Below, one piece after another: positions 1 through 62,770 of a stretch of 64,000 nucleotides of DNA. Source of the stretch: Raillietiella orientalis (taxonomy: Eukaryota). A program made the translations under genes and the position numbers. The stretch lies in assembly GCA_036172245.1 (NCBI GenBank), contig JAYWIR010000043.1, positions 62,001 through 126,000 of the forward strand, read 5' to 3'. Below the pieces are notes generated by a model that saw nothing but the letters and a program-made list of their open reading frames with translations, made no database searches and was not told the DNA's origin. How positions within the stretch are numbered: the stretch's first letter is position 1; every line of letters begins with the position of its first letter.

Positions 1-2
1 CA

Positions 3-1751
3 TACGTACCCCAAGGCTATAGACCTTCTCTCCGATATAAGGTGAGTGGCTTTCTTTCTGCGCGCGACGGAAATCAGTTCAACGATGAACTGACCCGTGT
101 TGGCGTGCGGGAGGATGACCTTCTCGCCATTATGCCCGTAAAAGACATGGGCTATTTCAAGGTGCGTTGCAAAGACGTTGCACTTGTGCAACGCTTGCTG
201 CGCACCCCGTTGTCGATCCGTGGCCAGAAGGTCTTCCCGGCCGCCATGGACGACTCATTTGTGGCGGAGATTTTCGACATCGATTCGGAAATCTCCGATA
301 TTGATATTCGGAACGCGTTGGCACAATTCGCCACGGTCCATGCGTTGTGGAGGGTGCGTAGCAACCTCAAGGAGTTTTCGTCCATACACAGCGGAGTCGC
401 TGGAGTCCGGCTTACAATGCCGGACCGCCGTCTGCTGCCCACCAAACTACAGGTGAAAGACACGGTCGTTCACCTGTGGTTCGTGGGCAAAGTAAGAACG
501 TGCGAGCAATGCGGGAAGGAGAGGCATTGTTTCGATAAATGCCCTTCTGGAAAATGCCGTTATTGCAAACTATCCGGGCACCAATTGAAAAATTGCCCGG
601 ATCTTTTGCGAAAAAAGGCAGCCGCAGAGCTCCATTTTAAAAAACAAAGCGCGGATAAAAAGAAAAAATCTGCGAAAAACCTGGAGACTCCAAGGCAGAA
701 ATTCCGAAATAACGCGAGGCGGAATGTCGCCCCAAAGCAGCAGGAAACCTCGCACGCGAAGCCCTGCGCGCCCCCTCTCGCGGCAGGGGAGCCGCAAAAG
801 AAAGGGTGCGGGGAATCCGGGGCAATGGTAAGTCCCCCTAGGCGCAATAGCTGTCATTCGCAAGCACGCCCGGCTCTTTCGGAGTTCGAGCAACCGGCGG
901 GGACGTCAATGGACAACGGCGGTAAGGACACTTCCAGTACCGTCAGATCCATTCCTTCACCTCCTGCAGTGGCTGAGAAGCCCAAATCGGATAAGAAGGG
1001 TTGTGCCGTGTCGACTTCGAAAGTCGGCAAAAAAAAATCCGCGTCGCGTTCCAACACCGCGAAAGCGGAGAAAAATCTCACGCCGTCGCAATCGAAGAGG
1101 AAGCTCTCGACTGGCGCGGATGCCATGCCAACGAAGGGATTAAAATCCCTTCCGAAGGCAGCGTCCATGACGAGCGTGTCGAAGCCATCCAAACTGCTCC
1201 CGTCCAAAGACGCGGATGGCTTCAAAGATGGCACTGGAGCACAATCTCCATTTACGGCGCCACGCGAAGTAAGGAACCGTAATGAAGTAAAGAAGACTTC
1301 AGCAAAGGTCCCTCGTGCAACTGCGCGTGAGCACGCTGAAAACGCGCGCGCCGGGAAAGCAGCCGTCACCAAAAGCGATGCTCTGGTGACGGAAAACGAA
1401 AACAGGACAGCTGTCAATCCAGCAGAACCTGTCACTGTTTCGCGGAAGGCCGAAACCCGATCGACCATGCGCCGGTCGGACTCCGAAATGGATGCCGTTC
1501 CGATCACCGAGACGAGGACAACTCGTTCGAAACCGTGTGCGCGCCGATCAAAAGTAGGCAGCCAGGCAACTCTATCCGCGAAGCCACGCGAAGTCTCCAC
1601 GAAACCCGACGGGGATAAGCCTGGCGTGGAGGCATTACATGCATGCAGCACGACAGAGGACGGTGGCGACCGTCCCCTCCAGCCAGTCGTGCTGCTCGCC
1701 CTCTGCTCGCCGGATAAAGCGAGCAAAAAGCCGCCACCTTCCCAGCAGTAA
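3..1751 (+). CDS. ORF1 (gag-like nucleic-acid-binding protein) of A, 5'-partial
   Basis: Frame is open from position 3; knuckles CEQCGKERHCFDKC and CRYCKLSGHQLKNC; homologous to the ORF1 at 45562. Confidence 0.88.
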   Translation, partial: YVPQGYRPSLRYKVSGFLSARDGNQFNDELTRVGVREDDLLAIMPVKDMGYFKVRCKDVALVQRLLRTPLSIRGQKVFPAAMDDSFVAEIFDIDSEISDIDIRNALAQFATVHALWRVRSNLKEFSSIHSGVAGVRLTMPDRRLLPTKLQVKDTVVHLWFVGKVRTCEQCGKERHCFDKCPSGKCRYCKLSGHQLKNCPDLLRKKAAAELHFKKQSADKKKKSAKNLETPRQKFRNNARRNVAPKQQETSHAKPCAPPLAAGEPQKKGCGESGAMVSPPRRNSCHSQARPALSEFEQPAGTSMDNGGKDTSSTVRSIPSPPAVAEKPKSDKKGCAVSTSKVGKKKSASRSNTAKAEKNLTPSQSKRKLSTGADAMPTKGLKSLPKAASMTSVSKPSKLLPSKDADGFKDGTGAQSPFTAPREVRNRNEVKKTSAKVPRATAREHAENARAGKAAVTKSDALVTENENRTAVNPAEPVTVSRKAETRSTMRRSDSEMDAVPITETRTTRSKPCARRSKVGSQATLSAKPREVSTKPDGDKPGVEALHACSTTEDGGDRPLQPVVLLALCSPDKASKKPPPSQQ

Positions 1752-4700
1752 TGCGGGGAATCGCGTCTTCTCGTCGTCTGTCCGTAACGTGTTGGAACGT
1801 GAACGGACTACAGAACGACGTGAAGAGGTGATTAGTAGCCAACGCCCTGCGCCCCTTCGACCTCGCGCTCCTGCAGGAGATTCACGTAATCTGCGACGAG
1901 CAATCAACCGAAATCGAGGAGCGCGCAGGCGGAACGCTACATTGGGGGTGCGGCGGCGCACACACGTGCGGCGTTGCGTTCCTCGTAAGAGGAAAAATGG
2001 CGGAAGCGGTGCGTAGTGTTCGTTTCGATGACGACGGACGGATAGGCCAGCTTGTCATCAAGTGGTCCGAGTCCATCGATCTCGTCGTTACAAACGTTTA
2101 CGCGCCGAGTGGCTCTCGCTACCTCGAATAAAGAGTAGCTTTCTTTGGTGATGTGCAGAGCCACTGGCTCAACAACTCCGGTTTCCAAGTGGCGCACCTC
2201 CTCGTTGGGAACTTCAACGTCCGCCTGCTCTCCGACGATTGGAGCCGCCCGAGGGAGCGCGCGCTGCCCATCGAGATGTGCGCGTCCGTGCACGCCGCCA
2301 ACTTGATAATCAGCGAATTTGGAATGGAAAGATCGCTCGATCACGTTTTCCTCGATGAAAACCTGCATTCGCGTGTGGGTAGGAGAGGAAGATTGTTGAC
2401 TAGGCTTTCTGACCACCAGAGGTTAAAGTTTGAGATCCTTCCGCCAGGCAGGGGGCCTCCGTTGCAAAACTGGAGGATGCAGGCGGATTGGCTTAGCCAC
2501 CCGGAGGCTGCGAAGCATCTACGTGGATACCTCCGAGGCTTTGCCATTCAAGAACTTGCGGACTGGGACGATCTCAAAAGATCTGTCCGCGAGTTCTGCT
2601 GCCAATTCCCCTTGCACCGGCTTCCACGCGGTTTCGGAGAGGGCGTTGCCAACAGTAGAGACTTTCTGCAGGCCCGCACGTTTTCGAGACGCGCGGATGT
2701 CGGGCGTTTCGCAGAGTACAGGGCGAGGGCCGAGCGCCAGGTCTGGCAGTCCGGAGCAGCATGCCTGTTGGACGACAATCGCCAGGAATGTTCGGCCCCA
2801 GCCGAAGTACGCCGCATTGTGAGACGCTACTACTCCTCGCTCTAAGCGGAATGCCCGACGGAGGATATTCTTTCTGAGATACTCCTGTCTCAGGATGCTC
2901 GTGTTGTCGGCGAGGAGGAACGCGAACGTCTCGACGAGCCCTTCACGGCGGATGAATTTTCGTCCGCCATCGCTGGGCTGAAGAGACGAAAGAAGCCAGG
3001 CGAGGATGGGCTCCCTGCAGAGTTTTATCAGTGCTTTGCAGTGGAGCTCATTTCCTTGATGCTCAAACTCGCGACGCTGATGAGTGAATCCGGGAATGTC
3101 CCTGATTCCTTCCGCTCAGCGAAGGTGCGTCTCCTGCCGAAAGGCGGAGACTTGCGCCAACTTAACAACTGGCGTCCGATCACCTTGGTGAACTCGGACG
3201 TCAAGTTGTTTTCCAAGCTGTGGGTCGCGCGGTTAGGAAGAATCGCGGAATCTGTGGTGATCCCGGAACAAACCTACGCGGTTCCGGGACGATCCATGCA
3301 GGCGAACATCCTTTTCGCGCGTACATGGATGCAGCTGCAGTAAGTTGTAGCGCAGCAAAGCCAGGCTGCTGCGAAAGTCACTGCCGCAGGCAAAAAGAAC
3401 AGGCGCCGACGGCAGGAGGGAACGCCAGGTGCCTTGGCGGTCGCGGTCGATCTCCACAAGGCGTTCGACTGCGTAAACGAGAAGCTGCTTTTGGAGCTTA
3501 TGGAACGCCTTGGGTTCCCGGCGCAACTCCTGCTGTATTTGCGCGCGTGCTGGCGCCACGCGCTAACCTGCATCACTTTTAGCGGCTGCCGCGTGTATGG
3601 TATTCCCGTTCGTAGGGGCATCCGACAGGGCGACAGCTTAAGCCCGTTGCTCTTCGGCATCTTCTTTGAGTTGGTGCTAAGAGCATACAGGCTGACGCTG
3701 TCTCACTTGCCAAGCTCCTGCCCGGGAACGCCTGCCGTGGCCGCCTACGCTGATGACCTGCTTCTTCTGATCCCCATGTCCACCCCGGCGTCCAGTGTCG
3801 AGGATTTCTTCGACCTGATTCGTCGGGGAGCGGGCGTGAGCGTGAACAGAGAGAAGAGCGTGGTGGTTCCTGTGGGTACGTCGTGGGAGGGGCAGTCCGA
3901 CTGGATCCGCCTGGGGATCCCCACGGGCGGGTACTTTAAGTACCTTGACGTTCCGTTGGGCGCTTTCGGCGCAGCCGAAGCGTGGACGGACTGTCTTCAG
4001 ATAGCAGAGTTGGCCATCAGCCCGTTCTTTAACGGCAAGTTTACCTTGCAGGAACGGGCGACTATTTGGAACACCTTTGTGGCCCCCCTCCCTTGTCCCC
4101 TGTTTTTTGTTTTGGACCCCCCCTATGCGGCAAAACAGCGGGCTTAGCGCCTGCTCAGGAACGCTCTCTGGTGTACGGCGAGATCCAGGATTCGCCTTAA
4201 AGATTTGTCAGCTCCGCGTCGGGATGCTGGTTTGGGTATCCTGACAATGGAGCGAATCGGACTGCAGGTGCAGTTCCGACTGCTGGCACTGTGTGCCCAG
4301 CTATGGACATCCCCCCTGTGTGTGCCAGCTCGCATTCTCCTGCGGAGATGCGCCGGCAGCGGAGGATTTCTCTCGCTTTTGCCGGGCACTCAATACAGGA
4401 AGCGGGGTTTCGGGTTTCCATTGCGGCTGTTGACCGCACTTCTGGAAGCACACTCTTGGATCTCCTGCCACCCAATGAACTTTGAAGCTTGGCGGCAGGA
4501 GTCTGTTGAATCCTGGGCGGCGTTCCAAGGAATACGCTCTGAAGATCTTCGCCCCCTCCGCCAATTTTTTCCACGATCCTTGGAAGAAGTACTGCAGGAG
4601 GAGGTGAAGTTTTCTACCCTGGCTGCCACGCCTCTTGCCGCAGCGCTGTCTGCCCTCAGGGCAAGAAACGACAGTGACCAACCGGCGAGGTGGGAGGTTT

Positions 4701-5344
4701 CCTGCACGATAGCGGGAAGAACCAAACTCCTTGGCACCTGGAAGACAAGTGAGTTGGCGGACGCCGCCACTCCTCGTGTTACTGCAAAGGGACTCCTCCG
4801 GTGAGCAGAAGAACTTGCTGTCACCCCCGAAAAACTTGTAGTCCCCCCACAGTGTATAAACAGTTCGCTGCTCCCCCTTGCTTGGAAACAAGCCGTGCTG
4901 CTTTTCGTTCACTGGGGTTTTCAGTGCAACGAGCGTTGGCATCGTGACTCCGGGGGACTTGCGTCTGCGAACTGCGTTCGGTGCGGATCGACGGAGTCGA
5001 TTCCGCACCTACTTCTGGAGTGCGGTGTCCTACAAGGACTGTGGCGTAGGCTGGCAACAGCACTATTGCATCCCGTGGACACCGCAAGAGACTTGCTGCG
5101 ACGATTCTTCACGCCGAGCGGGCTTTCACTAAGCGCAAGGATTGCAACCATCGGTTGCATACCCGCGATAGTTTCCGTCCGCCAGGCGTTGGAAATCAAC
5201 GGACAGCACCAAGAGGTAATTAGCAAAGCATACTTCTTAATGGGAGCATCCGCTAGATGGCCTCATTTGACAGAGGAGACAAAGAGGAATCTCGCCGCAA
5301 TACACCGCCGGTTTACACACCCTCATCAGCGGCCAACCCGGTGA
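1751..5344 (+). pseudogene. ORF2 (APE-RT-CCHC) of A; single frame with six nonsense codons
   Basis: Motifs WNVNG, LQE, YAPS, GNFN, SDH, DLHKAFD, GIRQGDSLSP, YADD and CVRC..H..C; stops at 1829, 2129, 2843, 3341, 4145 and 4802. Confidence 0.92.
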
Positions 5345-5650
5345 TCATTGCCCTACCCTCCATGAACTAAATTTGTATTTTCTTTTTACACCCGCGTCCC
5401 CATAGGCTCCGGAACATTTTTGGTGCTTATCGTATAAATCCCCGTGAGTACGGAGCCTAACCAAAAACCCGTTACCCTTCCCTCCAGTTTTTGATTTTTG
5501 TTTGTTTCCCCTCATTCCTCCCACGCTGCGAGCGGTTTGTTTACCAGGCCTGCGTGCCGGTAATTTTTCTATGTTCTCTGTCGTTCTCTTGGTTGGGGAC
5601 ATTGTCCCTCACCAGTTTATTATTATTAATAAACGCCCCGGAGTGACCGG

Positions 5651-8600
5651 GTGATAAATTTCAATCTCCGCCTGCTAACAGGTGAGCCGGAAACACAGGT
5701 GAACGCGATGAACGAGTTGTGCGTCGCCATGCGTGCGCGCAACTTGTTTGCTGGTGAGAGGGGAATGGTCCGCAGCATCGACCACGTCCTCCTCGACGCT
5801 GACCTGTGTTCACGGGTCGGCAAACGGGGGAGGGTTGCGTCAACGTTGTCGGACCATTCCCGGTTTATTTTCGAGATGCGGCCTCGCGACAAAGGACCGC
5901 CATCCAGAGACTGGAGTCTGCCGGGGGACTGGACGCGACTCTCAGGTGCAAAGGAACACCTTCGTGAATACCTGAGAGGCGTCACGCTCCGGAATCTCCA
6001 AGACTGGGACCTTTTCAAGGAATCGGTCCGGGAATTCTGCGAGCAGTTCCCTTTGGACCGCCTGCCCTCCGGATTCGGCGAGGGTCCTCGCAACCATCGG
6101 GCCTATTTACAGGTTCGAAGGTACGAGCGAACCCCTAATGTCCGTCGCCTGGCCGAGTACCGCGCCGGGGCCGAACGCCAAGCCTGGCAATCCGGGTCGG
6201 CCAGCTTGCTGGACGACCAGGGCCGGGAATGTTCGTCCCCGGCGTCGGTACGGCATCTCGTGCGGAGTTATTATTCCTTTCTTTACGCTAGAACGCCCCC
6301 GGATCAAGATGCCTCTCGGCTCTTGCTTCCGGATGGTGCCTCGACAATAGGGGAGGAGGAGTCGTTAAGCCTCGATGAGCCTTTTACCACCGGCGAAATT
6401 CTCGCCGGTATCAAAAGGCTCAAGAGGCGGAAAGCTCCAGGGGAAGACGGCTTGCCCGCGGAGTTCTATCAGAGCTTCACGGAAGAGCTGGCACCCCTGC
6501 TGCTTCAGCTGACAAGGCTGATCCGAGACGAAGGCGATGTTCCCGCCTCGTTTCGGTCAGCCAGAGTGAGGCTCCTTCCGAAAGGGGGAGACTTTAGGAA
6601 TTTGAACAACTTGCGTCCGATCACGATTGTGAATACGGACGCCAAGTTGGTTGCCGGGCTATGGGCTTCGCGTCTGGGGCAGGTGGCAGAATCCATTATT
6701 AGCCCGGAGCAGACATATGCTGTTCCCGGGCGAAGTATGGATGCCAACCTTTTCTTCGCGAGCACGTGGTTGCACGCGCAGAGGTATCAAAAGGAAGCGA
6801 AAGGAAAAATCGGCAACCCCACTTTGGGGCCGCCAGCAGGGCAGGGAATGGACTCCCGGGCGGGGAAGGAGGCCTTAGCGCTCGAAGTCGATCTCCATAA
6901 GGCGTTCGACTGTGTTGACCAGGGGCTTTTGTTGGAGCTCCTGGGTCGCATGGGCTTCCCACCCTCCTTGATCAACTACCTGCGCTCCTGCTGGCGCCAT
7001 GCCATAATTTCCGTCTCTTTCAGCGCTCAGAAGGTGCATGGCGTGCCGGTGCGGCGGGACATCAGGCAGGGAGATAGCCTGAGTCCCCTGCTCTTCAGCA
7101 CCTACTTTGAGTTGGTGCTGAGAGCCTACAGGGTGACTTTGGCCTCCTTGCCTAGCTCGTGTCCCGGCACGCCCGCCGTAGCAGCCTATGCCGACGACTT
7201 TCTGCTCCTGTTACCTATGTCCACCCCGGCGAAGGCGGTCGGAGACTTCTTCGATCTGCTCAGCCGTGGGACCGGACTGCAGGTCAACATGGCGAAGTCG
7301 TCGGTGGTGCCAGTAGGTGCGGCGTGGGCAGGGCAGCAGGACTGGGTCCGTCTGGGGATCCCCACGGCGAGGTGCATCAAGTACCTTGGTGTGCCGTTGG
7401 GTGACTACTCCCCTGCGGAAGCGTGGTCCAGCTGTCTTCAAAAAGTTGAGACGGCGATCGGCCCGTTCCTGGAAGGCAAGTTTCACTTGCCGGAACGGGC
7501 CGCGGTTTGGAACGCCTTCGCGGCCCCCATCCTCCGCCCCTTGCTTTTTGTTTGCCCCGCCCCCAGAGAATGCAAAAAGAGGACGAAGGACCTCCTCCGC
7601 ATCGCCCTTTGGGGCAAGGGGAGGCCCCGAGTGCCTCTGCAGGACTTGTGCGCTCCGCGTCGGGACGGCGGTCTTGGCCTCCTGACGCTGGAGCGCGTGG
7701 AAATCCAGCTGCGGTGGCGAACCCTTGCCATCGCAGCGAAGATGTGGAGCACCCCTTGGTGCGTTCTGGCCCGTCACCTCGCCAGGCGTGTGTCCCGATG
7801 CGAAGGACTCGCGTCGTTTCTTCTGTGCCCTGGCCGGAAGATCCGAAGATGCGGCCTTATGCTCGGACGCATAGCAACCTTGGCGAAGACGAACGGTTGG
7901 ATGGCTTGTGGCCCCGCCAAATCCTCCGCCTGGTTGGAGGAGTCTGCTGGCACATGGGCTAAGCTAAACCGGAGGAGCGAAAACCACATGAACTGCCTGC
8001 GAATCGGCCCATACGCCAACCGCACCCTGCGGGAAATACTGGAATTTCCTCGGAGTCGCAGGTGGGCGTTGACGACCTCCCTTGCTACGGCGATGCCCTA
8101 CCTCCTGAGGGCGCTTCAGGATTGCCAGAAGCCGAGGTGGCAAGTCACCTGCCAGATCGCAGGCAGGGAGAAGATGTTAAGCGGCTGGACCACAAAAGAA
8201 CAGGCGGACGCCACGACCCCGAGCGTCCAGCCGCGTGGACTAATGAGATGGGGCGAGCTGCTCGCCATCCCTACGGATGTGCTGAAGTGGCCCCCGGTAT
8301 TAAAGGAATCCAGGATCCTGCCCCTGAAGTGGCAAGAGTCGGCGTTGCTTTTGTTGCACTGGGGTCTACCCTGCAACGCGCGCCGCTTCCACTGGACGAG
8401 GGGAGCTGTGGATCCTTCGTGTGCCAGGTGCGGGGAGCGGGAATCGCTTACCCACCTTATTTTGGATTGTACTGCCATCCGACCCCTCTGGGAACGGTTC
8501 GGGGCGACCCTAGGGCTCCCTACGGGCAGCACCCCCAGAGACGTTCTTCGGCCCCTCTTCGTGAAGGACGCACTGCAGCTAGCCGCAGCCATCGCAGCCT

Positions 8601-8794
8601 TGTGCTGTGTCCGTGGAATCGTGGCGGCATGGAGCGACGCCAATAACGAAGGACTGGGTCCACACGCGAGGGATGTCATCCCATACGCCCAACGCTTCAT
8701 GCGGAGGGCTGCCGGATGGCCCCAACTGGGGAATATACGGACGGACCTCGAGGGCTTCCTTCAACGGATGGGCCCTCCTCACAGCGTTCAGTGA
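5651..8794 (+). CDS. ORF2 of B: uninterrupted for 1047 aa but lacking the N-terminal half of the endonuclease
   Basis: Motifs IDH, SDH, DLHKAFD, RQGDSLSP, YADD, YLGVP, CARCGERESLTHLILDC; the GTG start is created by the A/B junction. Confidence 0.88.
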   Translation: MINFNLRLLTGEPETQVNAMNELCVAMRARNLFAGERGMVRSIDHVLLDADLCSRVGKRGRVASTLSDHSRFIFEMRPRDKGPPSRDWSLPGDWTRLSGAKEHLREYLRGVTLRNLQDWDLFKESVREFCEQFPLDRLPSGFGEGPRNHRAYLQVRRYERTPNVRRLAEYRAGAERQAWQSGSASLLDDQGRECSSPASVRHLVRSYYSFLYARTPPDQDASRLLLPDGASTIGEEESLSLDEPFTTGEILAGIKRLKRRKAPGEDGLPAEFYQSFTEELAPLLLQLTRLIRDEGDVPASFRSARVRLLPKGGDFRNLNNLRPITIVNTDAKLVAGLWASRLGQVAESIISPEQTYAVPGRSMDANLFFASTWLHAQRYQKEAKGKIGNPTLGPPAGQGMDSRAGKEALALEVDLHKAFDCVDQGLLLELLGRMGFPPSLINYLRSCWRHAIISVSFSAQKVHGVPVRRDIRQGDSLSPLLFSTYFELVLRAYRVTLASLPSSCPGTPAVAAYADDFLLLLPMSTPAKAVGDFFDLLSRGTGLQVNMAKSSVVPVGAAWAGQQDWVRLGIPTARCIKYLGVPLGDYSPAEAWSSCLQKVETAIGPFLEGKFHLPERAAVWNAFAAPILRPLLFVCPAPRECKKRTKDLLRIALWGKGRPRVPLQDLCAPRRDGGLGLLTLERVEIQLRWRTLAIAAKMWSTPWCVLARHLARRVSRCEGLASFLLCPGRKIRRCGLMLGRIATLAKTNGWMACGPAKSSAWLEESAGTWAKLNRRSENHMNCLRIGPYANRTLREILEFPRSRRWALTTSLATAMPYLLRALQDCQKPRWQVTCQIAGREKMLSGWTTKEQADATTPSVQPRGLMRWGELLAIPTDVLKWPPVLKESRILPLKWQESALLLLHWGLPCNARRFHWTRGAVDPSCARCGERESLTHLILDCTAIRPLWERFGATLGLPTGSTPRDVLRPLFVKDALQLAAAIAALCCVRGIVAAWSDANNEGLGPHARDVIPYAQRFMRRAAGWPQLGNIRTDLEGFLQRMGPPHSVQ

Positions 8795-9010
8795 TCCCTT
8801 CCCTGCCCTCCAACTTCTTTTTGTCTGTTTATTTTTTTTTATTTTTCTTTTTGTTTTATCCCCATCCCCCTTTGCTGCTGAGGAACGCTACGCTGGGCTG
8901 CGTCCCGGCGTCCCGGCAGGTCCAGTGCATATGGCCGTGAGCGGGGCCTTGTACCGCGGATGTAGAGTTGTTTTTTAAAAATAAACGCCCCGGGCGTACC
9001 CGGGTGTAAA
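5658..9010 (+). mobile_element. Element B (family II), 3' portion starting inside the endonuclease domain
   Basis: Begins within the (GD)FNLRLL motif directly after the tail of A; terminus AATAAACGCCCCGGGCGTACCCGGGTG at 8980-9006. Confidence 0.92.
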
Positions 9011-13200: not shown

Positions 13201-13290
13201 CTTCGAAGCCGCGGGGAAGCAGGTACAAGGGGAACCGGCAGCATAACTAGCGGACCGATCTTTTCAGATCGTCCCAGTCCAAGAGCGAGA
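13201..13290 (-). mobile_element. Fragment N: family I ORF2 linker remnant; host of C and D
   Basis: Reverse complement encodes DWDDLKRSVR..CCRFPLYLLPRGF. Confidence 0.8.
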
Positions 13291-13297
13291 GCTGACA

Positions 13298-18135: not shown

Positions 18136-18139
18136 CCAG

Positions 18140-51393: not shown

Positions 51394-53297
51394 ATCTCCC
51401 GGGCTTGATCTGCGGAGATCACGTGGATCTCCTGCAGCAGCACCAGGTCGAAGGATGCCAGGGTGGCGGCCACGTCACGCCTCTTGCCGTCGTCGCTTAG
51501 CCCGTTCACGTTCCAACATGCGATCAGAAGACGACGGCGAGAGGCGATTCCCGGCATTATGGCTGGGAAAGTGGCGTCGAGGCACCTGCCGCGGGGCAGG
51601 TGTAAAAAAGGTCCATCGGTACGAGGACCATCGGAACGAGGACGGAGGCCCCATTAGGAGCCTGGGGTACCTGTTCGGCCTCCATCCTCACCATCCCCTC
51701 CGTGTCCGAGCGTGGAATTCTCTCGGGCGACGGGTCCCGGGAGTTTCCCACGCTCATGGCACCCTCGCTACCGGAAGCCATCTCTTCCCCTTCGACGGGG
51801 GATACGAGCTTCCTTGGCTTTGTGGACTTACGTCCAGCCTTCTTGCGGGGTGCCGCGGAGATGGATGCTGTGTTTCCTGCCTTCACCTCGGGGTCGGAAG
51901 TGGCCGACTCCTGAGGGGAAGCCGGACGCCTGACGGCCTTCTTGCCAGCCTTGGGGGCAACAGGCTGCTGCGAGGCAGCCAGCTCCTCCGCGTCGCGCTC
52001 GAAGGCGAAGTCATCAAGCGTGAGCTCGATGACGGACGCCGCCGACTCGCTCCCCTCCTTGTTGACTTTGTCAACGGAGGGTTGAGCAGGGGCAGCAGCG
52101 AGTTCTTTAGCGCCGCATTCGTCGATGGCGGGAATCCGCTCTACGACGACGCAGCAGCTTTTAATTTTATCGCGGCGCAGAGCGGTTTCGCTTCGTTTCG
52201 CCACGTTCTTTCCCTTCTCATGGGAGTTTTTCTTGGGGTCGACCTTCTGCCACCCTGGCTCTTGACCCTCGCTCTCGACCTTTTTGGCGTTTTTCGCCGA
52301 AGTTTCGGGGCTGGACTTCGCCTTGGTGGCGGAGGTGACCTCCTTAGCAGCAGCACGAGCTGCCAGCTTCTTTCTCTTTTTTGCCGCGCACTTTCTCGCG
52401 TTTTTCGCGGACACGACGCGGACTGTGTTTTGTGGGCACACCAGACGGGTGTGCCCCGCTTGTTTGCATTGCTGGCACTGCACGCTCTTACACTTCATTT
52501 TAAGGTGACCAAAGCTGCTGCAGCAGCCGCAAAACTTGGGTTTCCCCACGTACCACACGTCAACGGATTCACCGTTGACGGTGAGTTTGTGGGGAACCTC
52601 ACATCCCTCGCGAACCGTCACTCGCGCTGCACCCAGGCCGCCAAGCAACCCGTCGTAATCGACATAACGAGTAGGCTTTCCCCACAGCGCGTGGATAGTT
52701 GCGAATTTTTCCAATTCGTTCCGGACGGCCTCCTTCGTCATCCGGAACGTGATACCGGTCAGGTGAATGATCACCGACCGGTCTTCAGTTATTGGGAGAA
52801 GCCTCCGGCTGCCCATACTTACGGGGGTTCGCAGAAGTCTTTGCGCAAGAGTTGCCTCCTTGCAGATAACTTCCACAAAGTGACCCCCGCTTCTGACGGA
52901 CATAGCCAGAAGCTCCTCTTTCTGTACGCCGAGAACGCGCATCGCCCGTGAGAAGGCGCGCGCGTTCGCGGGAGAATATAGACCGCCTACCTTACATAGA
53001 AGGGGTGGGTTATACCCCTCCTCCAGGAAAGCGCGCATTTCCGCCATAGCCGCTGGCGTAGGTGCCGCAGCCACGGCGTTCCAAGCCCTGGGTAGGGCCG
53101 GGGGCGCATCCGTGCTGGCGGGAGCCTCCACTGATGCGGGAGCCCTCACCTCCATCTGCTCCGGGGGCAATGAGGTCATCGTCGCAGGATCCTCACCGGT
53201 GGTGGTATCAGGCATTTCTGCCTAATCCTCCACCCACACCACACAAAAGCACCAACGGAAATGGAACTCAGGAGCAACGAAAAGACACGTCCGCTCG
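51394..53297 (-). mobile_element. Element J, 5' part
   Basis: Endonuclease N-terminus ..DQAREI continues as ERISGGR at 45432; 5' motif at 53281-53290. Confidence 0.93.
51557..53215 (-). CDS. Intact ORF1 of J (552 aa)
   Basis: Open from ATG to stop; knuckles CGCCSSFGHLKMKC and CQQCKQAGHTRLVC; TAATG overlap at 51555-51559. Confidence 0.9.
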   Translation of the reverse strand: MPDTTTGEDPATMTSLPPEQMEVRAPASVEAPASTDAPPALPRAWNAVAAAPTPAAMAEMRAFLEEGYNPPLLCKVGGLYSPANARAFSRAMRVLGVQKEELLAMSVRSGGHFVEVICKEATLAQRLLRTPVSMGSRRLLPITEDRSVIIHLTGITFRMTKEAVRNELEKFATIHALWGKPTRYVDYDGLLGGLGAARVTVREGCEVPHKLTVNGESVDVWYVGKPKFCGCCSSFGHLKMKCKSVQCQQCKQAGHTRLVCPQNTVRVVSAKNARKCAAKKRKKLAARAAAKEVTSATKAKSSPETSAKNAKKVESEGQEPGWQKVDPKKNSHEKGKNVAKRSETALRRDKIKSCCVVVERIPAIDECGAKELAAAPAQPSVDKVNKEGSESAASVIELTLDDFAFERDAEELAASQQPVAPKAGKKAVRRPASPQESATSDPEVKAGNTASISAAPRKKAGRKSTKPRKLVSPVEGEEMASGSEGAMSVGNSRDPSPERIPRSDTEGMVRMEAEQVPQAPNGASVLVPMVLVPMDLFYTCPAAGASTPLSQP

Positions 53298-54223
53298 ACG
53301 CTCCGGAATCTCCTGGACTGGGACCTTTTTAAGGAATCGGTCCGCGAGTTCTCTGAGCAGTTCCCTCTGGATCGCCTGCCCCCCGGATTCGGCGAGGGTG
53401 CTCGCAACCATCGAGCCTATTTACAGACCCGTCGTTACGAGAGAACCCCTAATTTTCGTCGCTTGGCCGAGTACCGCGCTCAAGCCGAACGCCAAGCCTA
53501 GCAATCCAGGTCGGCAACTTGCTGGACGACCAGGGCCGGGAATGTTGGACCCCGGCGTCAGTACGGCATCTCGTGAGAAGATTTTATTCATGTCGCTACG
53601 CAAGGACGCCTCCGGACCAAGATGCCTCTCGGCGCTTGTTCCCGGATGGTGCCCCTGCAATAGGGGAAGAGGAGTCGGTAAGCCTCGACGAGCCTTTCAC
53701 TACCGGAGAAAATCTCGCCGGTATCAAAAGCCTCAAGATACGTAAAGGCGTCAGGGGAGGACGGCTTGCCCGCGGAGTTCTCTCAGTGCTTCGCGGAAGA
53801 GCTGCCACAACTGCTGCTCGTGTTGACAAGGCTGATCCGAGGCAATAGCGATGTTCCCGCTTCGTTTCGGTCAGAAAGAGTGAGGCTCCTTCCGAAAGGG
53901 GGAGACCTCAGGAAATTGCACAACTGGAGTCCGATCACAATCGTAAAAACGGACGCCAAGTTGCTAGCGGGGCTATGGGCGTCGGGTTTGTGACAGGTGG
54001 CAGAGTCCATAATTAGCACGGAGCAGACCTATGCTGCTCCCGGGCGAACTATGGACGCAAGGCTCTTCTTCGCAAGCACGTGGATGCACCGGCAAAGGAG
54101 AGAAAAGAAAGGGAAAGGGAAAATCGGCAACCCCACATTGGGGCTGTTAGCGGTTCTGGGAAGGGACCCCGGGGCTGGGAAAAGAGCCCTAGCGATCGCA
54201 GTCGATCTCCATAAGGCGTTCGA
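53298..54223 (+). mobile_element. Element M part 2: ORF2 linker to DLHKAF
   Basis: Resumes exactly at the TSD of J and ends at the TSD of L; similar to B at about 5985-6910. Confidence 0.9.
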
Positions 54224-57200
54224 TTTTCACCCGGATTTCGCCGGGGCGTTTATTGTAAAATAAACTTTTACCAAGACGTGCGGTGGCTGGAGCATTGCTC
54301 CAGCCACGCACGAACAAACACAGAGCCTGCCGGGTCACCGGTTCGCAGACCGGTACGGTTTACCACGGCAGCAGGGGGAAAAGGGAAAAACAAAAAAAAC
54401 AAAACAAAAAAAAAAAGAAAAGTTTTGAGGGTAAGGGAAGGGATCACAGTTGCTGGTGGGGCCGTTGCATCCTTTGCAGGATGCCGGCAAGCTCCATCTG
54501 TATTCCTGGATTTAGGTGGGGCCATCGGATCGCCCTTCTCAGAAACTAAGAGGCTGGCTGCATAGCACCCTGGTCGTGTGGTCCTCCCGTAGCCTTGCTC
54601 CAGGCGACGACGATTTCGCGGAGGCAGCACAGAGCTGCTAACGAGGCCGCTAGTCGAAGGGCGTCGGCAACGAAGAGGGCTTTCCGTGCGTCCCTAATGT
54701 TGCTGCAGGGGATTCCGATGGCCGCGGCAAAGCGAAACCAAAGGGGCCGAAGGGCAACACAATCCACTAGCAGGTGGGGGCGGGAATCCCGTTTCCCACA
54801 CTTGACGCAATTGTGGTCCACCGCTCCCCAGGTGCAGTGGTGTCGGCGGGCGTTGAAGGGGAGTCCCCAGTGCTGCAACAGGAGAGCCGACTCCTGCCAT
54901 TTTAAGGAAAGGGCGGAAGTGTTCATGAGCACCGGGGGCCACTTCAGATGTTCAATGGGAACATCGAGCAGAGCACCCCAGCGCAGAAGTCCATTGGGAG
55001 GCGTACTCGGGGTCGCAGCGTCTGTTAACTGGCCCGTCTTCCACTCTCCTATCTTCTTCTCCTTTCCGGAGATTGTTACTGTAACCACTCACTTCCTTGC
55101 AACATTGCTGCCCAGATCTTCCATCAGGGAGGGAAGCGCAGCAACGAGGGGGGTTCTTCCTGCCCACGCTCCCTTCTTTGGATCCTCCAGGATCTCGCAG
55201 AGCGTGCAAATTCTGTAACCCCCAAACAGGAACCTTCGTTCCTGTTGGGAGCGTTGCATGCCGAACTGTCCCCACGTTCGAACGGTTTCCTGCAACCAGG
55301 CACTACCGTTCAAAGGGCGACAGGTGAGCAATCCTGGGTTTTTCCTATACAGCGCAGCCACCCTCCGTAGCTGGAGTCCGCATCGGTTGACGCAGCGACG
55401 GAGTGCAAGAAACGACGTCAGTCCCGTCTTGCCGGTGGCTTGCTAGAGAAGGAGACGTGCAGGGACGCACCAACAGGTGCACCACAACTCTGGAACGAGT
55501 GCGGACAATCGGAACTGGAGCTAAAGCTCCAGCCGCTCCAACGTCAGGAGGCCCAGACCACCATCCCGACGAGGAGCGCACAAGTCCTTTAAGCGCACTC
55601 GGGCCCTCCCGTTGCCCCAGAGGGCGATACGGAGGAGGTCCTTTGTCCGCTTTTTAATTCTCTCTGTGGGGGGGCAAACAAAAAGCAAGGTGCGGAGGAG
55701 AGGAGCCGCGAACGTGTTCCAAACCGCGGCCCGTTCAGGCAGGAAAAACCTGCCGCAAGGAACGGGCCGATCGCCGTCTCTACTTTTTGGAGGCAGCCGG
55801 ACCACGCTACCGAAGGGGAGTAGTCCAACAACGGCACACCAAGGTACTTGAAGCATCTCGCCGTGGGGATCCTTAGACAGACCCAGTCCTGCTGCCCTGC
55901 CCACGCCGTACCAACTGGCATCTCAGACGACTTAGCCCTGTTCACCGTAAGTCCGGTTCCCGATGCAGCAGGTCCAAGAACTCCTCGACCGCCGAAGCCG
56001 GGGTGGACATAGGGAGCAGCAGCAGAAAATCGTCCGCGTATGCTGAAACGACCGATGTACCGGCACAGTCGTGCGGCAGGTGCGCCAGAGTTCCCCTGTA
56101 CTCTCTCAGTACCAATTCAAAGTAGGTACTGAAGAGCAAGGGGATCAGGCTGTCTCCCTGCCGGATCCCACGCCGCACCGGCACGCCGTGCACGGTCTGC
56201 CCGCTAAAAGTATCATTGATGAGCGCGTCGCGCCAGCAGGAGCGCAGATAGGCCACTAATAATGCCGGGCAGCCCAAGCGTTCCAGAAGCTCCAGAAGGA
56301 GATTCTGGTCGACGCAATCGAATGCTTTTCGCAAGTCGATTGCGACCGCAAGGGCTCCCATTCACACCCGACCATCCAACCCCTTGCCGGCGCACGCACC
56401 GGAATTCCAACTGCGTACCAAGCTCCTTTCATGTTGGAGCTCTAGCCAGGTGGAAGCGAGGAAAAGGTTCGCCTTCATGCTTCGCCCGGGAACAGCATAT
56501 GTCTGTTCCGGGCTGATGATTATGTTGGCAACTTGTCCCAGACGCTCTGTTCAAACCTTAAACAGCAACTTGATGTCCGCATTCACTATTGTGATGGGAC
56601 TTCAGTTGTTCATGCTCCTCAGATCTCCTTCCTTAGGGAGGAGCCGCACCTTTGCCGAACGAAACGAGGCAAGAACGTCACCTGTTTCGCGTATCAGCAA
56701 GGTGAGATGCTGTACCAGGGGAGTAAGCTCAGTCGCGAAAGTTTGATAAAACTCCGCGGGCAGGCCGTCCTCCCCTGAAGCCTTTCGCCTCTTGAGCTTC
56801 CCGATGGCCGAGAGGATCTCGTCCATCGTGAAAGGCTCGTGGAGGGTCTTTCTCTGCTACTCTTCGATCGCTGGAGCGCCTTTGGGAAGCAGGAATCGTG
56901 AGAAGTTCGTCTCCGGAGGTGCCCTGGTATACAGGGAGGAGTAGTAACTCCTCAGCAGGCCGCGGATTTGGACAGGTGCCGAGTGCTCCTGGCCCTGATC
57001 GTCAGTAAGCTGGCCGATCCCTACTGCCAGGCTTGCTTCTCGGCTCCCGCTTTGTATTCCGCCAGCCTGCGGATGTCGGGGGTCCTGGCATAAGGACGGG
57101 CCCGCAGGTAGGCTCGTTCTTTACGGACCCCGGTCCCATAACCGGTAAGTAAGCGGTGCAGAGGGAACTGGTCGCAGAACTCCTGGACCGACCGCTTGAA

Positions 57201-59791
57201 GCGGTCCCAATCCTGGAGTGTCCGCAGCCTGAAGCTCCGTATGAACGTGCGGAGATGTTCCGCCGCGTTCGGGAGCTTCAGCCAGTCCCCTGGGAGACGT
57301 CACGCTGAAGAAGGGGGGCCCCTGTCGCGCGGATGGATCTCGAGGACTAGCGGGCGATGGTCGGAGAGCTCGCACGGTACCTTGCCGCGCCTCCCCACGC
57401 GAGGGCACAGGTGCTCGTCAAGAAACACGTGGTCAATGCTTTCTTCCATCACCGGTGCACTGGCCAACAAATGACAGGTGTGCACCGCCATGCACACCTC
57501 GTTCACCTGGACACGCACGTGATTCTGCCCATCTGGTTTCAGGCGAACGTTGAAATCGCCTGCAACCAGATGGGCATTCCGCACGCCTCTTCGGTCAGCC
57601 AGTCTCGCCGGAGGGCAAGGAAAAACTCTTTCCTCGCCCTCCTGCTCATCAGGTCCTTGCCGCTCGGTGCGTACACGTTCGTGACGATCAGATCGATCGA
57701 GTCGGACCACCTGAGAGTCAGCTGGCCGACACGACCGTGATCGTCGAACCGCACGCCCCGAGCCGCGGTCTCGACGGCTGGCCGAAGCAGGTAGGCGACA
57801 CCGCAACTTCTCGCTCTCCCACACCTGTACCATAGCCGTCCTCCGGAGATCCTTTCGATCTCTTGCGCTGGTTCTGCAGAGCTCACGTGGATCTCCTGCA
57901 GCAGCGCAAGGTCCTAGTACTCCAGAAGGGCGGATATGTCTCGTCTCCTGCCGGCGTCTGTCATGCCGTTCACGTTCCAAACGGCGATGCGCAGACGACG
58001 GCGGGTGGTGATTCTTGGCATTACTGCTGGGAAGATTAAGGTGTAGGGGAGCCCTCCTCTTGCGAGGCGGGCGGGATGTCCATGGGGGTTTCGGCCTTCT
58101 CAGGCACCTGAGGCACCTATTGGGCCTCCACTTCCTCCATCCCCTCCGTGTCCGTGCGTGGGATTCTCTCGGGCGACGGGTTTCGAGAGTTTCCCACGCT
58201 CATGGCACTCTCGCTTGCGGAAGCCATCTCTTCCCCTTCGACGGGGGACACGAGCTTCCTCGGCTTTGTGGACTTACGTCGAGCCTTTTTGCGCGGTGCC
58301 GTGGATACGGAGGCTGTGCTTCAGGCCTCCACCTCGGGGTCGAAAGTGGGGGATTCCTGAGGGGATGCCGGACGCCTTACGGCCTTCTTGCCAGCCTTGG
58401 AGGGTTCTGGCTGCAACGAGGCTGCCAGCTCCTCCGCGGCTCTCGCGAAGGCTACGTCATCGATGGTGTTGTCGATGACGGACGGCGCCGCCGGCTAGCT
58501 CCCCTCGCTGTTGATTGTGTCAGCAGAGGGGTGGTCGTTGGTAGCGGGGAGTTCTTTCCGGCAGCGTTCGGCAACATAGAGAACGCGTTCGACAACGACG
58601 CTGCACTCTTTAATAATCGCGCTACCCTGCTCTTTCTGCTTCTGTTGGTAGGCGATTTTCTCTTCCATCCTCCTCTCCTTCTTTGATTTTTTGGCCGTTG
58701 CCACTTGCCATCTAGTCTCCATACTGGCTCCCTCAACTTTTTCGGCGTTGGTTGCCAGGGTCTCGGCTGCGGCCTGGGTCTTGGGCGCGGGTGGCCCAGC
58801 CTTCGCGGCAGCTTTCGCCGCCAGCCTTTTCTGCAGAACCCGTGCGCGTTTTTTAAGGTTTCTCTTGGAAACCACCCGCACTGCTCCTTTTGGGCAAACC
58901 TCCCTCGTATGGCCCATTGTGCCGCATACTTGGCACTGCACATTGGGACACCTCTTTTTGAGGTGGCCCGACGTATTGCAGAAGCCACAGTATTTCGGCT
59001 TCCCCACATACCAGAGGTCGACGGTTTTGCCTTCAACCACCAATTTGTGGGGAAGTGTGCAATCCTCCCGAACGGTCACGCGCGCAGCAGTGAGGACGTG
59101 TTGCAGCCCCGTGTAGTCCTCGAAAGGACTAACTTTCGTCCACTGCGCGTGGACCGTTCCGTATTCCTCCAACGCGGCGCGAACCTGTTCTTTGCGCATT
59201 CGCGGGGTGACGCCTAACAGGTGGACCACCATGCTGCGGTCCGTCGTAGTGGGGAGGAGCCTGCGCATCTCCATCACAACGGGGATTTTAAGCAGTCGTT
59301 GGGCCAGCTCTGCATGTTTGCAGATGACCTCAACGTACTGACCCCCGCTGCGGATGGTCATAGCGCTGAGCTCCTCCTCTTTCACATCGAGAGCGCGCAT
59401 GTCCTTCGAGAAGGCGCGCGCGCTCTCTAAAGAATATAAATTGCCTACCTTGTAAAACAATGAGGGGTTGTACCCCTCCTCTACATAGGCCGACAATTCC
59501 GAAGCGGCTGTAGGCGATGGCGCCGACACAACGGCGCTCCACGCCCGCGCTGCAGCGGGGAATGATTCTGTGGGGGCGGATTCCTCCACCTACATCGCCT
59601 CTGGGGGCGAAGTTGGCGCCGCCCCCTGGCTCTCCATCGCCTCCGGGGGCGGCGTTGCCGCTGTCCCCTGGCTATCCCTGGTGGTCGCGTCAGGCATCGC
59701 TGCCTGATCGACCACCGAACCACACGACGCTTGCACTGGGGGAGACTTCCTGGCACGAGAAGCACTGAGAAAACACGTACACCCAGGAGCG
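54224..59791 (-). mobile_element. Element L (family III): full length, degenerate
   Basis: TSD CA(T/C)AAGGCGTTCGA at 54210-54223 and 59792-59805; ORF1 about 59697-58021; TAATG at 58019-58023; terminus at 54228-54254. Confidence 0.93.
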
Positions 59792-61897
59792 CACAAGGCG
59801 TTCGACTGTGTGGACCAGGAACTTTTCTTGGAGCGATTGGGTCGCATAGGCTTCATACCCTGCTTGATATCCTTCCTGCGCTCTGGCTGGCGGAATGCGA
59901 TGATTACCGTCTCTTTCAGCGGTCACAAGGTGTATGGCGTGCCGGTGCGGCGGGGCATAATGCAGGGAGATAGCGTCAGCCCCCTGCTCTTTAGCACCTA
60001 CTTTGTGTGGGTGCTGAGAGCGTACAGTGTGACTTTAACCCCCTTGCCGTGCTCGTGCCCCCTTACGTCCGCCGTAAGTGTTTATGCCGACGATCTTCTG
60101 CTCCTGTTACATATGTCCCCCCCCTTGAAGGCGGTCGGAGATTTCTTCGACCTGCTCAACCGCGGGACCGGACTGCAGGTGAACAGGGCGAAGTCGTCGG
60201 TGGTGCCAGTTGGTGCGACGTGGGCAGGGCAGCAGGAATGGGTTCGTTTGGGGATCCCAATCTCGAGATGCATCAAGTAACTTGGTGTGCCGTTGGGGGA
60301 CTTCTCCCTTGCGAAAGCGTGGTCCACTTGCCTCCAAAAGTCCTGACGGCGATCGGCCCGTTCCTGGAAGGCAAGTTTCACTTGCCAGAACGGGCCGCGG
60401 TTTTGAACGCCTTTGCGGCCTTCATCCTCCGCTTATTGCTTTTTGCTTTCCCCGCCCCAGGAGTTGTTAACAAGAGGACGAGGGTCCTCCTCCGCATCTC
60501 CTTTGGGGCAAGGGGAGGCCCCGAGTCCCTTTGAAGGCCCTTTGCGCTCCTCGTCGGGACAGCGGGCTCAGCCTTCTGACGCTGGAGCGCGTGGAGAAAC
60601 AGCTGCGATGGCGTACCCTCGCCATCGCAGCGAAGATGTGGAGCACCCCGTGGTGCATTCCGGCTCGTCTACTCGCCAGTCCTTTGTTCCGGTGGAGGGA
60701 CTCGCGTCTTTTTTTTTGAACCTAGGCCGGAAGATCGGAAGATGCGGCCTACAGCTGGGGCGCATGGCATCGTTGGCCATGGAGAACAGCTGGATGGTTT
60801 GCTGCCCCACCAACTCTTCCGCCTGGCTGGAGGAGTACATTGGAACGTGCGCTGTGGTGAACCGGAGAAGCCACGTAACGTAGAATCGTCTCTGATGCAG
60901 CCCCTACGCCCGCTGCACTCTGAAAAATCTCTTGAAGAATCCAGCTAGAAGCACGTGGGCAAAGACAACCTGCCTGGCTACGGCGCTGCCCTTCCTGAGG
61001 AGGGCGCTTTACAGCAGTCAAACGCCAAGGTGGCAAGTCTCCTGCTGCATCGAGAAACATGAGAAGAGAATGAGCGTCAGGACCATGGGTCAACTGGTGT
61101 TCGCCACGACCCCGTGCGTCCAGCCGCGAGGTCTAAGATACAGCGAGCTGCTGGCCATCCCTACGGATGTGCTGAAGTGGCCCCCGCTTCTTCTGGAATC
61201 CAGGATACTGCCCCTTAAGTGGAAAGAGTCGGCGTTGCTCTTGTTGCATTGAGGTTTACCCTGCAACGCACGCCGCTCCCACTGGACAAGAGGAGTTGTG
61301 GATCCTGCGTGGGTCAGGTGAGGAGAGCGGGAATCGCTCTCTCACCGTATTGTGGACTGTGCTGCCCTTCGCTCCCTTTGGGAACGGTTCGGGACGACCC
61401 TCGGTCTCCCTGCGGGCAGTTCCCCTAGAGACGTTCTTCGGCCCCTCTTCGTGAAGGACTCCCTGCAGCCAGTCGCAGCCCTTGCCGCCTTGTGCTGCGA
61501 CCGAGGCATGGTGGCGGCATGGAGCGACACCAAGAAGGAAGGAGTGGGTCAACACGCGAGGGATGTTATCCCATATGCCCAACGCTTCTTGCGGAGAGCT
61601 GCTGGATGGCCCCAACTGGGGAATATACAGATGGACCTCAAGGGCTTCCTTCAACGGATGGGCCCTCCTCTCAGCGAATTGTGATCCCTTCTCTGCCCTT
61701 CAACCTCTTTTGTTTTTTTGTGGTTTTGCTTTTTGGTTTTTGTTTTTTCCCCATCCCCTCTTGCTGCAGGGGAGTGTCACGCCAAAATGCGTTCCGGCGT
61801 CTTGGTAGGTCCCGTGCATAAAGCCGTAAGCGGGCCTGGTACCGCGTTTGTAGAGTTTTTTTTAATAATTAACGCCCCGGGCGTACCCAAGTGGCAA
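59792..61897 (+). mobile_element. Element M part 3: RT through the 3' terminus
   Basis: Resumes HKAFDCVDQ; YADD; terminus AATTAACGCCCCGGGCGTACCCAAGTG at 61867-61893 followed by GCAA. Confidence 0.9.
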
Positions 61898-61916
61898 TTC
61901 CAATTCCCCTCTGTGG

Positions 61917-62490
61917 TAAGAGGACGTGCATTTCCTGCGCTCCGCCTGCGTGGCAAGGCGAGTGGTTTTTTGCTTAGTAGTTTGTGCGTGCACATCGTCG
62001 GTGTCCGATGGCAGCGTTGCCCGAGGACACCGCGATAAAAGTAGGCGTGAGGGAGGCTTGTTCGTCCCCACAGCCTACTAGATCAGGGGCATCCGCCCCG
62101 GAATCGTCCCCGGCGAAGCCATGGTCATGGAGCGCCATGGTGGCCGCTCCTACTGTGGAAGCCATCGCCGAGATAGAAGCCTACAAGATAGCGGGGTATA
62201 AACCCTCGCTAGTCTACAAGGTAGGCAACCTTTTTGATGGGCGAATTGCACGCAACTTTAAGAAGGCGCTGCGGAACGCCAATATCTTCGAAGAAGATCT
62301 TGACGGCCTATCCGTCCTCAGCGGCGGGCAGCGGGTCGAGGTGGTATGCAAAGATATCAGTTTGGCCCGACGCCTAATCACCCACCCTCTGATCGTTGAA
62401 GGTCGTAAGATCTTGCCGGTGACCATCGACCGCTGGGTGGTGGTCCATCTCACTGGGATCTCGAGTCGAATGACTAGGTCAGCGGTTCAG
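61917..62490 (+). mobile_element. Element M': second M-type 5' UTR and ORF1 start
   Basis: Colinear and highly similar to about 39092-39665. Confidence 0.88.
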
Positions 62491-62770
62491 CCATGAGTTC
62501 TTCCACCGCCTGCAGGAAGGCGTCATCCTCGATTGCGTCGAGCTCGGCGCGCGGTTCCCCCTCTCTTTCGCCAGAGGGTTCAATATCGACAGTCGCCACT
62601 TCACCGGACGCGAGAACAGGGATTGCTCCCCCAGTGGCGGCATCAGTTGCCTCCACACTTTCCACTTCTACCGAACAAGCGCGGAGCTTTTCGCGGCACG
62701 ATTTTGTGCGCTGCGTTTTTGTCTTAACAGCGCTTCGTTCGGGACTCCCAGGCGTTCTTCTAAGATGTAC
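62491..62770 (-). mobile_element. ORF1 fragment (F-like), possibly the ORF1 of I
   Basis: Reverse complement gives LRACSVEVE..EGEPRAELDAIEDDAFLQAVEEL, similar to ORF1 of F. Confidence 0.75.

Follow-up and report, generated by a model that had tools for sequence, protein, structure and literature searches.

Antisense nesting and recurrent insertion sites in a self-nested L1-type LINE cluster of Raillietiella orientalis

In several green algae, the centromeres are proposed to be clusters of L1-type long interspersed nuclear elements (LINEs) nested into one another, and proposals for how such LINEs find their own copies have invoked chromatin marks, CENH3 and sequence. Zepp of Coccomyxa ('Chlorella') C-169 and ZeppL of Chlamydomonas and relatives are L1 LINEs whose copies nest in a single cluster on each chromosome, at the putative centromere. 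The Zepp clusters have a GC content of 61% against 53% for the genome (PMC3446292), and ZeppL has a length of 8.3 kb (bioRxiv 10.1101/2025.03.28.645958). Insertion into its own copies, with undefined specificity, is reported for CNL1 of Cryptococcus neoformans (PMC12810828), and the double-insertion tandems of R1 consist of head-to-tail copies with a 33-nt ribosomal DNA spacer (PMC5932611). The portions of the Zepp and ZeppL literature searched state no site or strand rule, and neither an antisense rule nor fixed sites in an element's own coding sequence are stated in the literature searched, which did not cover the original Zepp descriptions. Here we analyse a stretch of 64,000 nucleotides from Raillietiella orientalis (GenBank assembly GCA_036172245.1, contig JAYWIR010000043.1, positions 62,001 to 126,000), the whole of which we call the window. 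Its bases 1-62,770 are ~100% L1-type LINE sequence, made up of copies of one LINE family.

Nests with target-site duplications (TSDs), the orientations of inserts, recurrent insertion sites and a purine context at the nick can be observed directly in this cluster. A sequence-only reading of the window had described a self-targeting LINE system that inserts antisense into its relatives. Our analysis supports self-targeting through the return of independent insertions to identical nucleotides within the family's sequence, and not through the observation, made in that reading, that all 14 3' termini abut LINE sequence; the termini all exist, but their abutting LINE sequence is uninformative, as it is expected in a region that is ~100% LINE. 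The recurrence of sites is a stronger signal than the orientation bias and is new relative to the sequence-only reading.

Nested copies and recurrent insertion sites

The full-length element is 5.95 kb long, and its best-preserved copy is E23 (45445-51393). 'Coordinate N' denotes the window position minus 45,440 on E23, carried to other copies by alignment. Mapping of the window with tblastn and tblastx gave ~30 fragments of the open reading frames (ORFs) ORF1 and ORF2, which tile both strands. The parts are given below with their strand; EN stands for endonuclease, UTR for untranslated region, and the lettered hot spots are the recurrent sites tabulated further on.

1..5657 (+): E1, LINE copy with its 5' end off the window; 3' terminus 5657 abuts E2 in sense, at host coordinate ~2485
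5658..9011 (+): E2, copy that begins in the EN region and runs through to its 3' terminus, which abuts E3 in sense
9012..13200 (+): E3, copy that has entered S4 antisense with its 3' terminus, at hot spot B (2913)
13201..13287 (-): S4, piece of a host lying antisense, EN region, coordinates 2913 to 2829; the S4 + S5 junction is duplicated at 33222-34564 (87%)
13288..18137 (+): S5, copy with intact 5' end, 3'-cut at coordinate 5147; its 5' junction with an antisense host falls at hot spot A (~2829)
18139..20628 (+): S7/E7, copy reaching from coordinate 3324 up to its 3' terminus, joined to S5 without a change of orientation; terminus antisense into S8 at 2214 (hot spot C)
20629..22880 (-): S8, 5' part of an antisense host, coordinates 2214 to 1, including ORF1
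22885..25474 (+): S9 + S10, inverted second copy (89%) of the 3' end of X and the antisense Y flank; terminus 25217 is not an independent event
25482..27592 (+): E11, 5'-truncated copy; 3' terminus antisense into S12 ORF1, just past the zinc knuckle (hot spot E)
27593..27924 (-): S12, antisense piece with 5' UTR and ORF1 knuckle; 5' end meets E13 at ~2907, beside hot spot B
27925..30807 (+): E13, copy spanning coordinate ~2907 up to its 3' terminus; this terminus has entered an ORF1 fragment (30808-30995) antisense, at a distance of 11 nt from the site of E11
30996..31022 (+): orphan 3' tail of 27 nt; behind it comes S14, an antisense host, precisely at hot spot B (2913)
31023..31597 (-): S14 (coordinates 2913 to ~2660) and S14b (3410 to ~3070), both antisense and meeting at ~31260 without a change of orientation; S14b (-) forms the left half of E15's host
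31598..33058 (+): E15, 5'-truncated copy, antisense nest in S14b + S16 with a 14-nt TSD (1 mismatch)
33059..34564 (mixed): S16 (-, host, ~3081 to 2829) and S17 (+, 5' part), together a second copy of the S4/S5 junction
34592..36149 (+): S18, fragment of a copy (coordinates 3678-5210), joined to S17 without a change of orientation; host of E19
36150..39099 (-): E19, copy entering S18 antisense with its 3' terminus, 36150; carries Y at hot spot B
39100..61897 (+): Y, full-length copy that X and Z split into three pieces (39100-41801, 53298-54223, 59792-61897)
41802..53297 (-): X, full-length copy, antisense in Y at hot spot A (2833), perfect 16-nt TSD GGAGATTCCGGAGCGT; interrupted by E23
45445..51393 (+): E23, the innermost of the full-length copies, lying antisense in X (coordinate 2190), perfect 12-nt TSD ATCTCCCGGGCT
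54224..59791 (-): Z, near full-length copy, antisense in Y at ~3741; TSD TCGAACGCCTT (perfect over 11 nt, or 14 nt with 1 mismatch)
61898..61924 (-): antisense spacer of ~27 nt from the EN region, homologous to 39074-39099, a copy of the hot-spot-B target between the Y 3' end and the W 5' end
61925..62770 (+): W, 5' portion of another copy, which matches the Y 5' end at 92% identity, head-to-tail behind Y

The right half of the cluster parses cleanly as nests. Five nests retain both junctions, with TSDs of 12, 16, 11-14, 14 and ~26 nt; they involve different subfamilies and all five are antisense. Y interrupts E19 (-), with a ~26-nt target repeat on both sides of Y, and the 3' end of E19 in turn interrupts S18 (+), giving the alternating chain S18(+) <- E19(-) <- Y(+) <- X(-) <- E23(+). 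Because this verified chain alternates, the bias is relative to the host and not to an absolute strand. An absolute strand preference, considered as a cause since 11/14 termini lie on the + strand, was rejected on the same ground.

The host side of each junction was put on a common alignment and checked against uninterrupted homologues. The events group into four hot spots, three of them in the EN-coding region (A, B and C) and one in ORF1 (E):

Hot spot A, coordinates 2833 and ~2829: X; the 5' junction of S5/S17
Hot spot B, coordinate 2913 (coding ...LPRGFGEG): E3, the orphan and Y; the S12 5' junction at ~2907; W behind a second copy of the target
Hot spot C, coordinates 2190 and 2214: E23; E7
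Hot spot E, ORF1 just past the zinc knuckle: E11 and E13, 11 nt apart

At hot spot B, three host flanks begin at an identical column (2913) in hosts from two subfamilies, the host sense strands reading ...TTCGAAG|, ...TTCAGAG| and ...TTTCGAG|; E3, the orphan and Y have thus entered the same nucleotide in the same orientation, as is asked of a site-specific LINE. Inserts at a shared site are of different lineages (73-80% identical in their last 300 nt), and so are the hosts. E3 and the orphan are separate events by parsimony, because the sister hosts H1 and H2 share the S5 junction and only H1 has E3. The remaining sites are singletons, antisense at ~3081, ~3741 and 5210 and sense at 2485 and ~1650, so that the 13 independent events use at least nine distinct positions, two of them sense. 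Five same-strand pairs lie within 25 nt among the 78 pairs of events, a clustering that was reached in 27 of 200,000 uniform simulations, and in 856 of 200,000 when the orphan was left out (3 pairs). Together with the spacer between them, the head-to-tail Y and W match the signature of double insertion at a single preferred site, and an unequal exchange between TSDs would look alike.

The orientation of inserts was scored on the 14 3' termini in the window, 13 with the full 3' motif and one represented by the 27-nt orphan tail (30996-31022). They lie on the + strand at 5657, 9011, 13200, 20628, 25217, 27592, 30807, 31022 (orphan), 33058, 51393 and 61897, and on the - strand at 36150, 41802 and 54224. 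Blastx of the 400 nt beyond each terminus found antisense coding sequence behind nine of them (13200, 25217, 27592, 30807, the orphan, 33058, 36150, 41802 and 54224) and a sense coding match behind 5657. The flanks of 20628 and 51393 belong to the ORF2 N-terminal region, which is outside the protein queries, and are antisense by DNA homology to uninterrupted copies (e.g., 51394-51602 vs 15177-14969, 86.6%), while the flank of 9011 is sense (80% to 40624-40733). Behind the last terminus, 61897, only ~27 nt of antisense EN-region spacer precede the sense 5' end of the + copy W, where blastx gives sense ORF1 from nt 270. The tally is therefore 12 antisense and 2 sense; blastx and DNA homology of the flanks confirm the earlier count of 12/14 antisense, in which only A into B and B into C, in the labels used there, were sense.

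This tally has a one-sided binomial p of 0.0065. Termini 25217 and 41802 are one insertion copied by inverted duplication, which leaves 11/13 independent events antisense (p = 0.011); 10/12 would give p = 0.019. Against p0 = 0.58, the maximum motif strand bias, 11/13 still gives p = 0.043. The antisense bias is real in the window, but it exceeds chance only modestly and was noticed post hoc. With each hot spot counted once, 8/10 are antisense (p = 0.055), and this figure speaks for chance and non-independence, in which case a few events, gathered post hoc from a single region with rearrangements and partial duplication, would mimic a rule. The observation was picked by a reader seeking oddities, and duplications do copy junctions, two pairs of which were found. 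We nevertheless consider this explanation doubtful: the recurrence of sites is hard to reach by chance in the simulations, and the five TSD-verified nests span different subfamilies.

One of the duplications is an inverted segmental duplication (41547-44149 vs 25473-22880) that spans a junction and is 89.4% identical. Within it, the last 300 nt of X (41802-42101) and of its inverted duplicate E9 (24918-25217) are 98% identical; a 98% end in an 89.4% whole suggests gene conversion between the inverted copies, or a mosaic duplication. The S4/S5 junction (~13.29 kb) is likewise duplicated at ~33.31 kb (87%). Two further candidates were rejected as duplicates, S12 of Y because of its 69% identity, and E13 of E19 because of a different 3' UTR type and flank.

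Nick context and competing explanations

Pyrimidines occupy 35/39 of the insert-strand bases +1 to +3 in the 13 independent flanks, against a background of ~50%, and the nicked strand therefore ends in a purine triplet (RRR|). The preference has no strand asymmetry in the family, whose sense strand is 50.4% purine. Around the insertion sites, insert and host are 60-75% identical, with a longest exact run of 9-19 nt, which makes pairing with the incoming RNA unlikely. No microhomology or complementarity of the nicked 3' end to the RNA 3' end was seen by eye in the junction sequences.

A palindromic hexamer lies within 12 nt of the nick at 5/13 independent sites, against a background of 0.124 in 14-nt windows. 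The target sites concerned are 13201, 9012, 30808, 33059 and 51394, and the hexamers are TTCGAA within CTTCGAAG, TCCGGA, GTATAC within the 12-nt CTTGTATACAAG, CGGCCG and CCCGGG. The comparison was made post hoc, and the palindromes near nicks are only suggestive.

In target-primed reverse transcription (TPRT), an antisense nest means that the sense strand of the host was nicked. This logic of the sequence-only reading is sound. The R-loop or homology homing that was built upon it gains no support from insert-host likeness of this order or from hot spots fixed to the nucleotide. In its general form, that explanation holds that the displaced sense strand of a transcribed or RNA-paired host is nicked and that the hot spots are structured points. 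The antisense bias itself would follow from it, most EN-region hosts (X, Y and the S4 + S8 host) are full-length with their own 5' ends and could be transcribed, and the post-hoc palindromes would be in keeping with structured points. The identities and short exact runs given above argue against pairing with incoming RNA, recurrence at a fixed nucleotide across hosts of different subfamilies is not predicted, and primer ends show no microhomology to the RNA 3' end; we therefore regard R-loop- or transcription-directed nicking as quite improbable. A long shot of the same order is a version in which the endonuclease acts on transcribed, full-length family members, on the sense strand displaced in an R-loop by the host's own transcript, and nicks it at structured points that bear a palindrome and follow a purine triplet. 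In this way the element would home antisense to active relatives, silence them and build a centromere-like alternating cluster.

The bias may also have arisen after insertion. If both orientations were inserted, sense nests would form direct repeats, between which recombination would delete the 3' terminus of the insert and leave a chimera, whereas antisense nests would only invert and keep their junctions, so that a count of 3' termini would over-sample antisense. Such loss of sense nests by direct repeats had been named as the alternative in the sequence-only reading. It gains from three same-orientation 5' junctions without a matching sense 3' junction (S5/S7 at 18137/18139, S17/S18 at 34564/34592 and S14/S14b at ~31260), which are the scar it predicts and which are omitted from the earlier statement that the additional 5' junctions are also antisense. 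Counting these three, sense events number 5 against ~12-13 antisense. Copies also exchange sequence, as X and its duplicate indicate (98% in the last 300 nt, 89% overall). However, orientation-dependent survival leaves unexplained the independent insertions at the same nucleotides on the same strand, as well as the 5/5 antisense among nests with intact TSDs. Moreover, an insert-host identity of 60-75% is a poor substrate for homologous recombination, and two sense nests (E1 in E2, E2 in E3) persist with intact termini. As the whole explanation we find it unlikely, while part of the antisense 3'-junction excess may stem from later loss of sense-nest 3' junctions. If the bias were such a survival artefact, it would call for caution when insertion preferences are deduced from old nests.

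The best-supported account is a site-selective TPRT in which the nick falls on the sense strand of sequence belonging to the family itself; we advance it tentatively and at somewhat less than an even chance. According to it, an L1-type LINE family with several old subfamilies would integrate by TPRT into its own earlier copies. Its endonuclease would nick just 3' of a purine triplet, preferring a few positions on the family's sense strand, three in the endonuclease-coding region and one just past the ORF1 zinc knuckle. Sense-strand nicks would leave each new copy antisense to its host, and successive nests would therefore alternate. We infer that the recurrence of sites reflects recognition by the element's own proteins.

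Several observations weigh against site-selective nicking. All evidence comes from one 64-kb window, and within it the singleton sites are without bias (3 antisense, 2 sense). When the null is limited to coordinates 1650-3750, the clustering of the conservative set is reached in 9,173 of 200,000 simulations. Five or more sites are used, where a strict site-specific LINE has a single target, and no common motif beyond RRR| was found among the hot spots. The strand asymmetry of YYY, TYYC, TCTCC, TTCC and TCGAA cannot produce the bias, since the antisense fraction of these motifs is only 0.51-0.58. Some of the 'independent' events could be old unrecognised duplications, and the segment from 13 to 39 kb, with its duplications and at least three junctions that need deletion or recombination, is not reducible to simple nests.

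If the element does use a few defined sense-strand sites in its own coding sequence, its targeting becomes testable with short oligonucleotide substrates. The mechanism would automatically disrupt older copies and yield alternating arrays rich in inverted repeats, and such arrays would bear on cluster stability and small-RNA production.

The element, its relatives and its surroundings

In E23, ORF1 (45556-47274) is open over 572 codons and the ORF2 frame (47411-51037) has one in-frame stop, at 47837-47839. This stop sits in the endonuclease domain (...PSGAGR*AERIEFF...), and the frame is open elsewhere; E2 carries an open ORF2 of 1053 aa. ORF2 runs from an N-terminal APE-type endonuclease through a reverse transcriptase (RT) to a Cys-rich C-terminus. 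The endonuclease is identified by PF03372 in the S5 copy (15014-15718; E = 1.3e-13, 51.6 bits against a cut-off of 24.5), by its best PDB matches, which are LINE-1 endonucleases (E = 8e-8), and by the motifs WNVNGL, LLQEIH, GDFN and SDH, visible in translation. RVT_1 identifies the RT and is present in 6 of the 12 longest ORFs of the window (best E = 2e-20), while zf-RVT matches are weak (E = 1.6e-4 and 3.5e-3, below the cut-off). The zf-CCHC match of ORF1 is also weak (E = 0.0015, 19 bits, under the 20.8 cut-off), and the ORF1 translation shows a knuckle of the type CNCCDEVGHIQKWC. In plant and algal L1, a CCHC knuckle serves as the nucleic-acid-binding motif of ORF1.

The motif AATAAAcG-CCCC(G)GG-n5-CC(C)GGGTG-nnAA, a short stem-loop with 2-5 A behind it, is common to the 13 complete 3' ends. 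A poly(A) tail, as is typical of L1, is absent at these 13 termini, and no A-run longer than 11 occurs anywhere in the window. The stem-loop (CCCGG n5 CCGGG) with its upstream AATAAA, e.g. at 51364-51393, is conserved across lineages whose ORF2 proteins are ~50% identical. Such a conserved 3' structure fits a putative 'stringent' LINE, whose RT would recognise its own 3' structure. The 5' regions are variable, and short tandem repeats occur close to the 5' end, or to the N-terminal part of ORF1, in the minus-strand copies S8 (22554-22692, 48 nt x 2.9) and Z (59593-59677, 42 nt x 2.0).

Several old lineages or subfamilies make up the family: long self-matches are 71-89% identical in nucleotide sequence, and the ORF2 proteins of the window copies are 52-68% identical to each other. 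A nucleotide paralogue within the window exists for 89.1% of bases 1-62,770 and for 0% of 62,771-64,000; the stretches of 1-62,770 without one fall inside mapped elements. As far as 62 kb the GC content is 54-62%, and over the final 2 kb it is 53%. Relatives in the databases are distant, with one protein at 60% identity and the others at <=30%, and their typical domain set is PF03372 + PF00078 + PF13966. When metagenome contigs were scanned with a protein profile, 43 loci came up, and in 40 of them the best segment was 21-35% identical; the outliers were L034 and L035 (47% over ~200 residues) and L040 (64% over 28 residues). A separate metagenome scan for the 3'-end motif gave 0 matches.

One public sequencing run contains 58% of the words from 45000-52000, and 626 of its contigs were placed on 700-20699 at 80% likeness. 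The 15 contig joints listed, out of 37, are all skips or returns between paralogous positions, and none of the run contigs listed on 700-20699 bridges a nest junction by at least 31 nt. The best-fitting run contigs (700-5676) differ from the window by ~2-3%. The run is probably not the exact source of the window DNA, or else the cluster is polymorphic.

The cluster stops abruptly at 62,770. The sequence beyond (62771-64000) has a GC content of 53% and no window paralogues, and no convincing ORF was seen in it. It holds an assembly gap of 99 N at 62845-62943 and a (TCAGC)5 microsatellite at 63533-63557.

Comparison with described LINEs

Like Zepp and ZeppL, the window element is an L1-type LINE in a dense GC-rich cluster of self-nested copies, a likeness in cluster features. 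The GC contrast also resembles that of Zepp (61% vs 53%; PMC3446292), with 57-62% in the cluster and 53% beyond it. Zepp carries poly(A), and the window element is without it. Unlike Zepp and ZeppL, the window has many full-length copies in alternating orientations. Arrays made mostly of 5'-truncated tandem 3' ends, which characterise Zepp and ZeppL, are not what is seen here, as at least five window copies keep their 5' ends (E23, X, Y, Z and S5). The element itself, at 5.95 kb, is shorter than the 8.3 kb given for ZeppL.

CNL1 differs in kind. It is a single-ORF element resembling the R2 superfamily that lies in subtelomeres and may be directed to telomere-like sequence, whereas the window element is L1/APE-type with two ORFs; no telomeric repeats lie near the window element. 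With human L1 the element shares an APE endonuclease, ORF1 and ORF2, 5' truncation and variable TSDs (11-26 nt). Human L1 has a weak TTTT/AA target preference and primes on poly(A). Unlike it, the window element ends in a 3' stem-loop and a 2-5 A tail without poly(A), and its nick follows a purine triplet and not a T-run.

Target-specific lineages with an APE fold are known, among them R1, TRAS and Tx1. With site-specific APE-type LINEs (R1, TRAS/SART and the Tx1 group) the window element shares the repeated, independent use of one nucleotide in one fixed orientation, and the head-to-tail Y and W, separated by a copy of the target, resemble the R1 tandems (PMC5932611). Unlike in R1, TRAS/SART and Tx1, the target is the element's own coding sequence, at least five sites are used and they have no common recognition sequence that we could find. 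In essence, a self-nesting LINE cluster is of a known kind, to which the site and strand rule is a possible addition, and the present cluster would appear to behave like those of Zepp and ZeppL or like CNL1, with a site and strand rule added.

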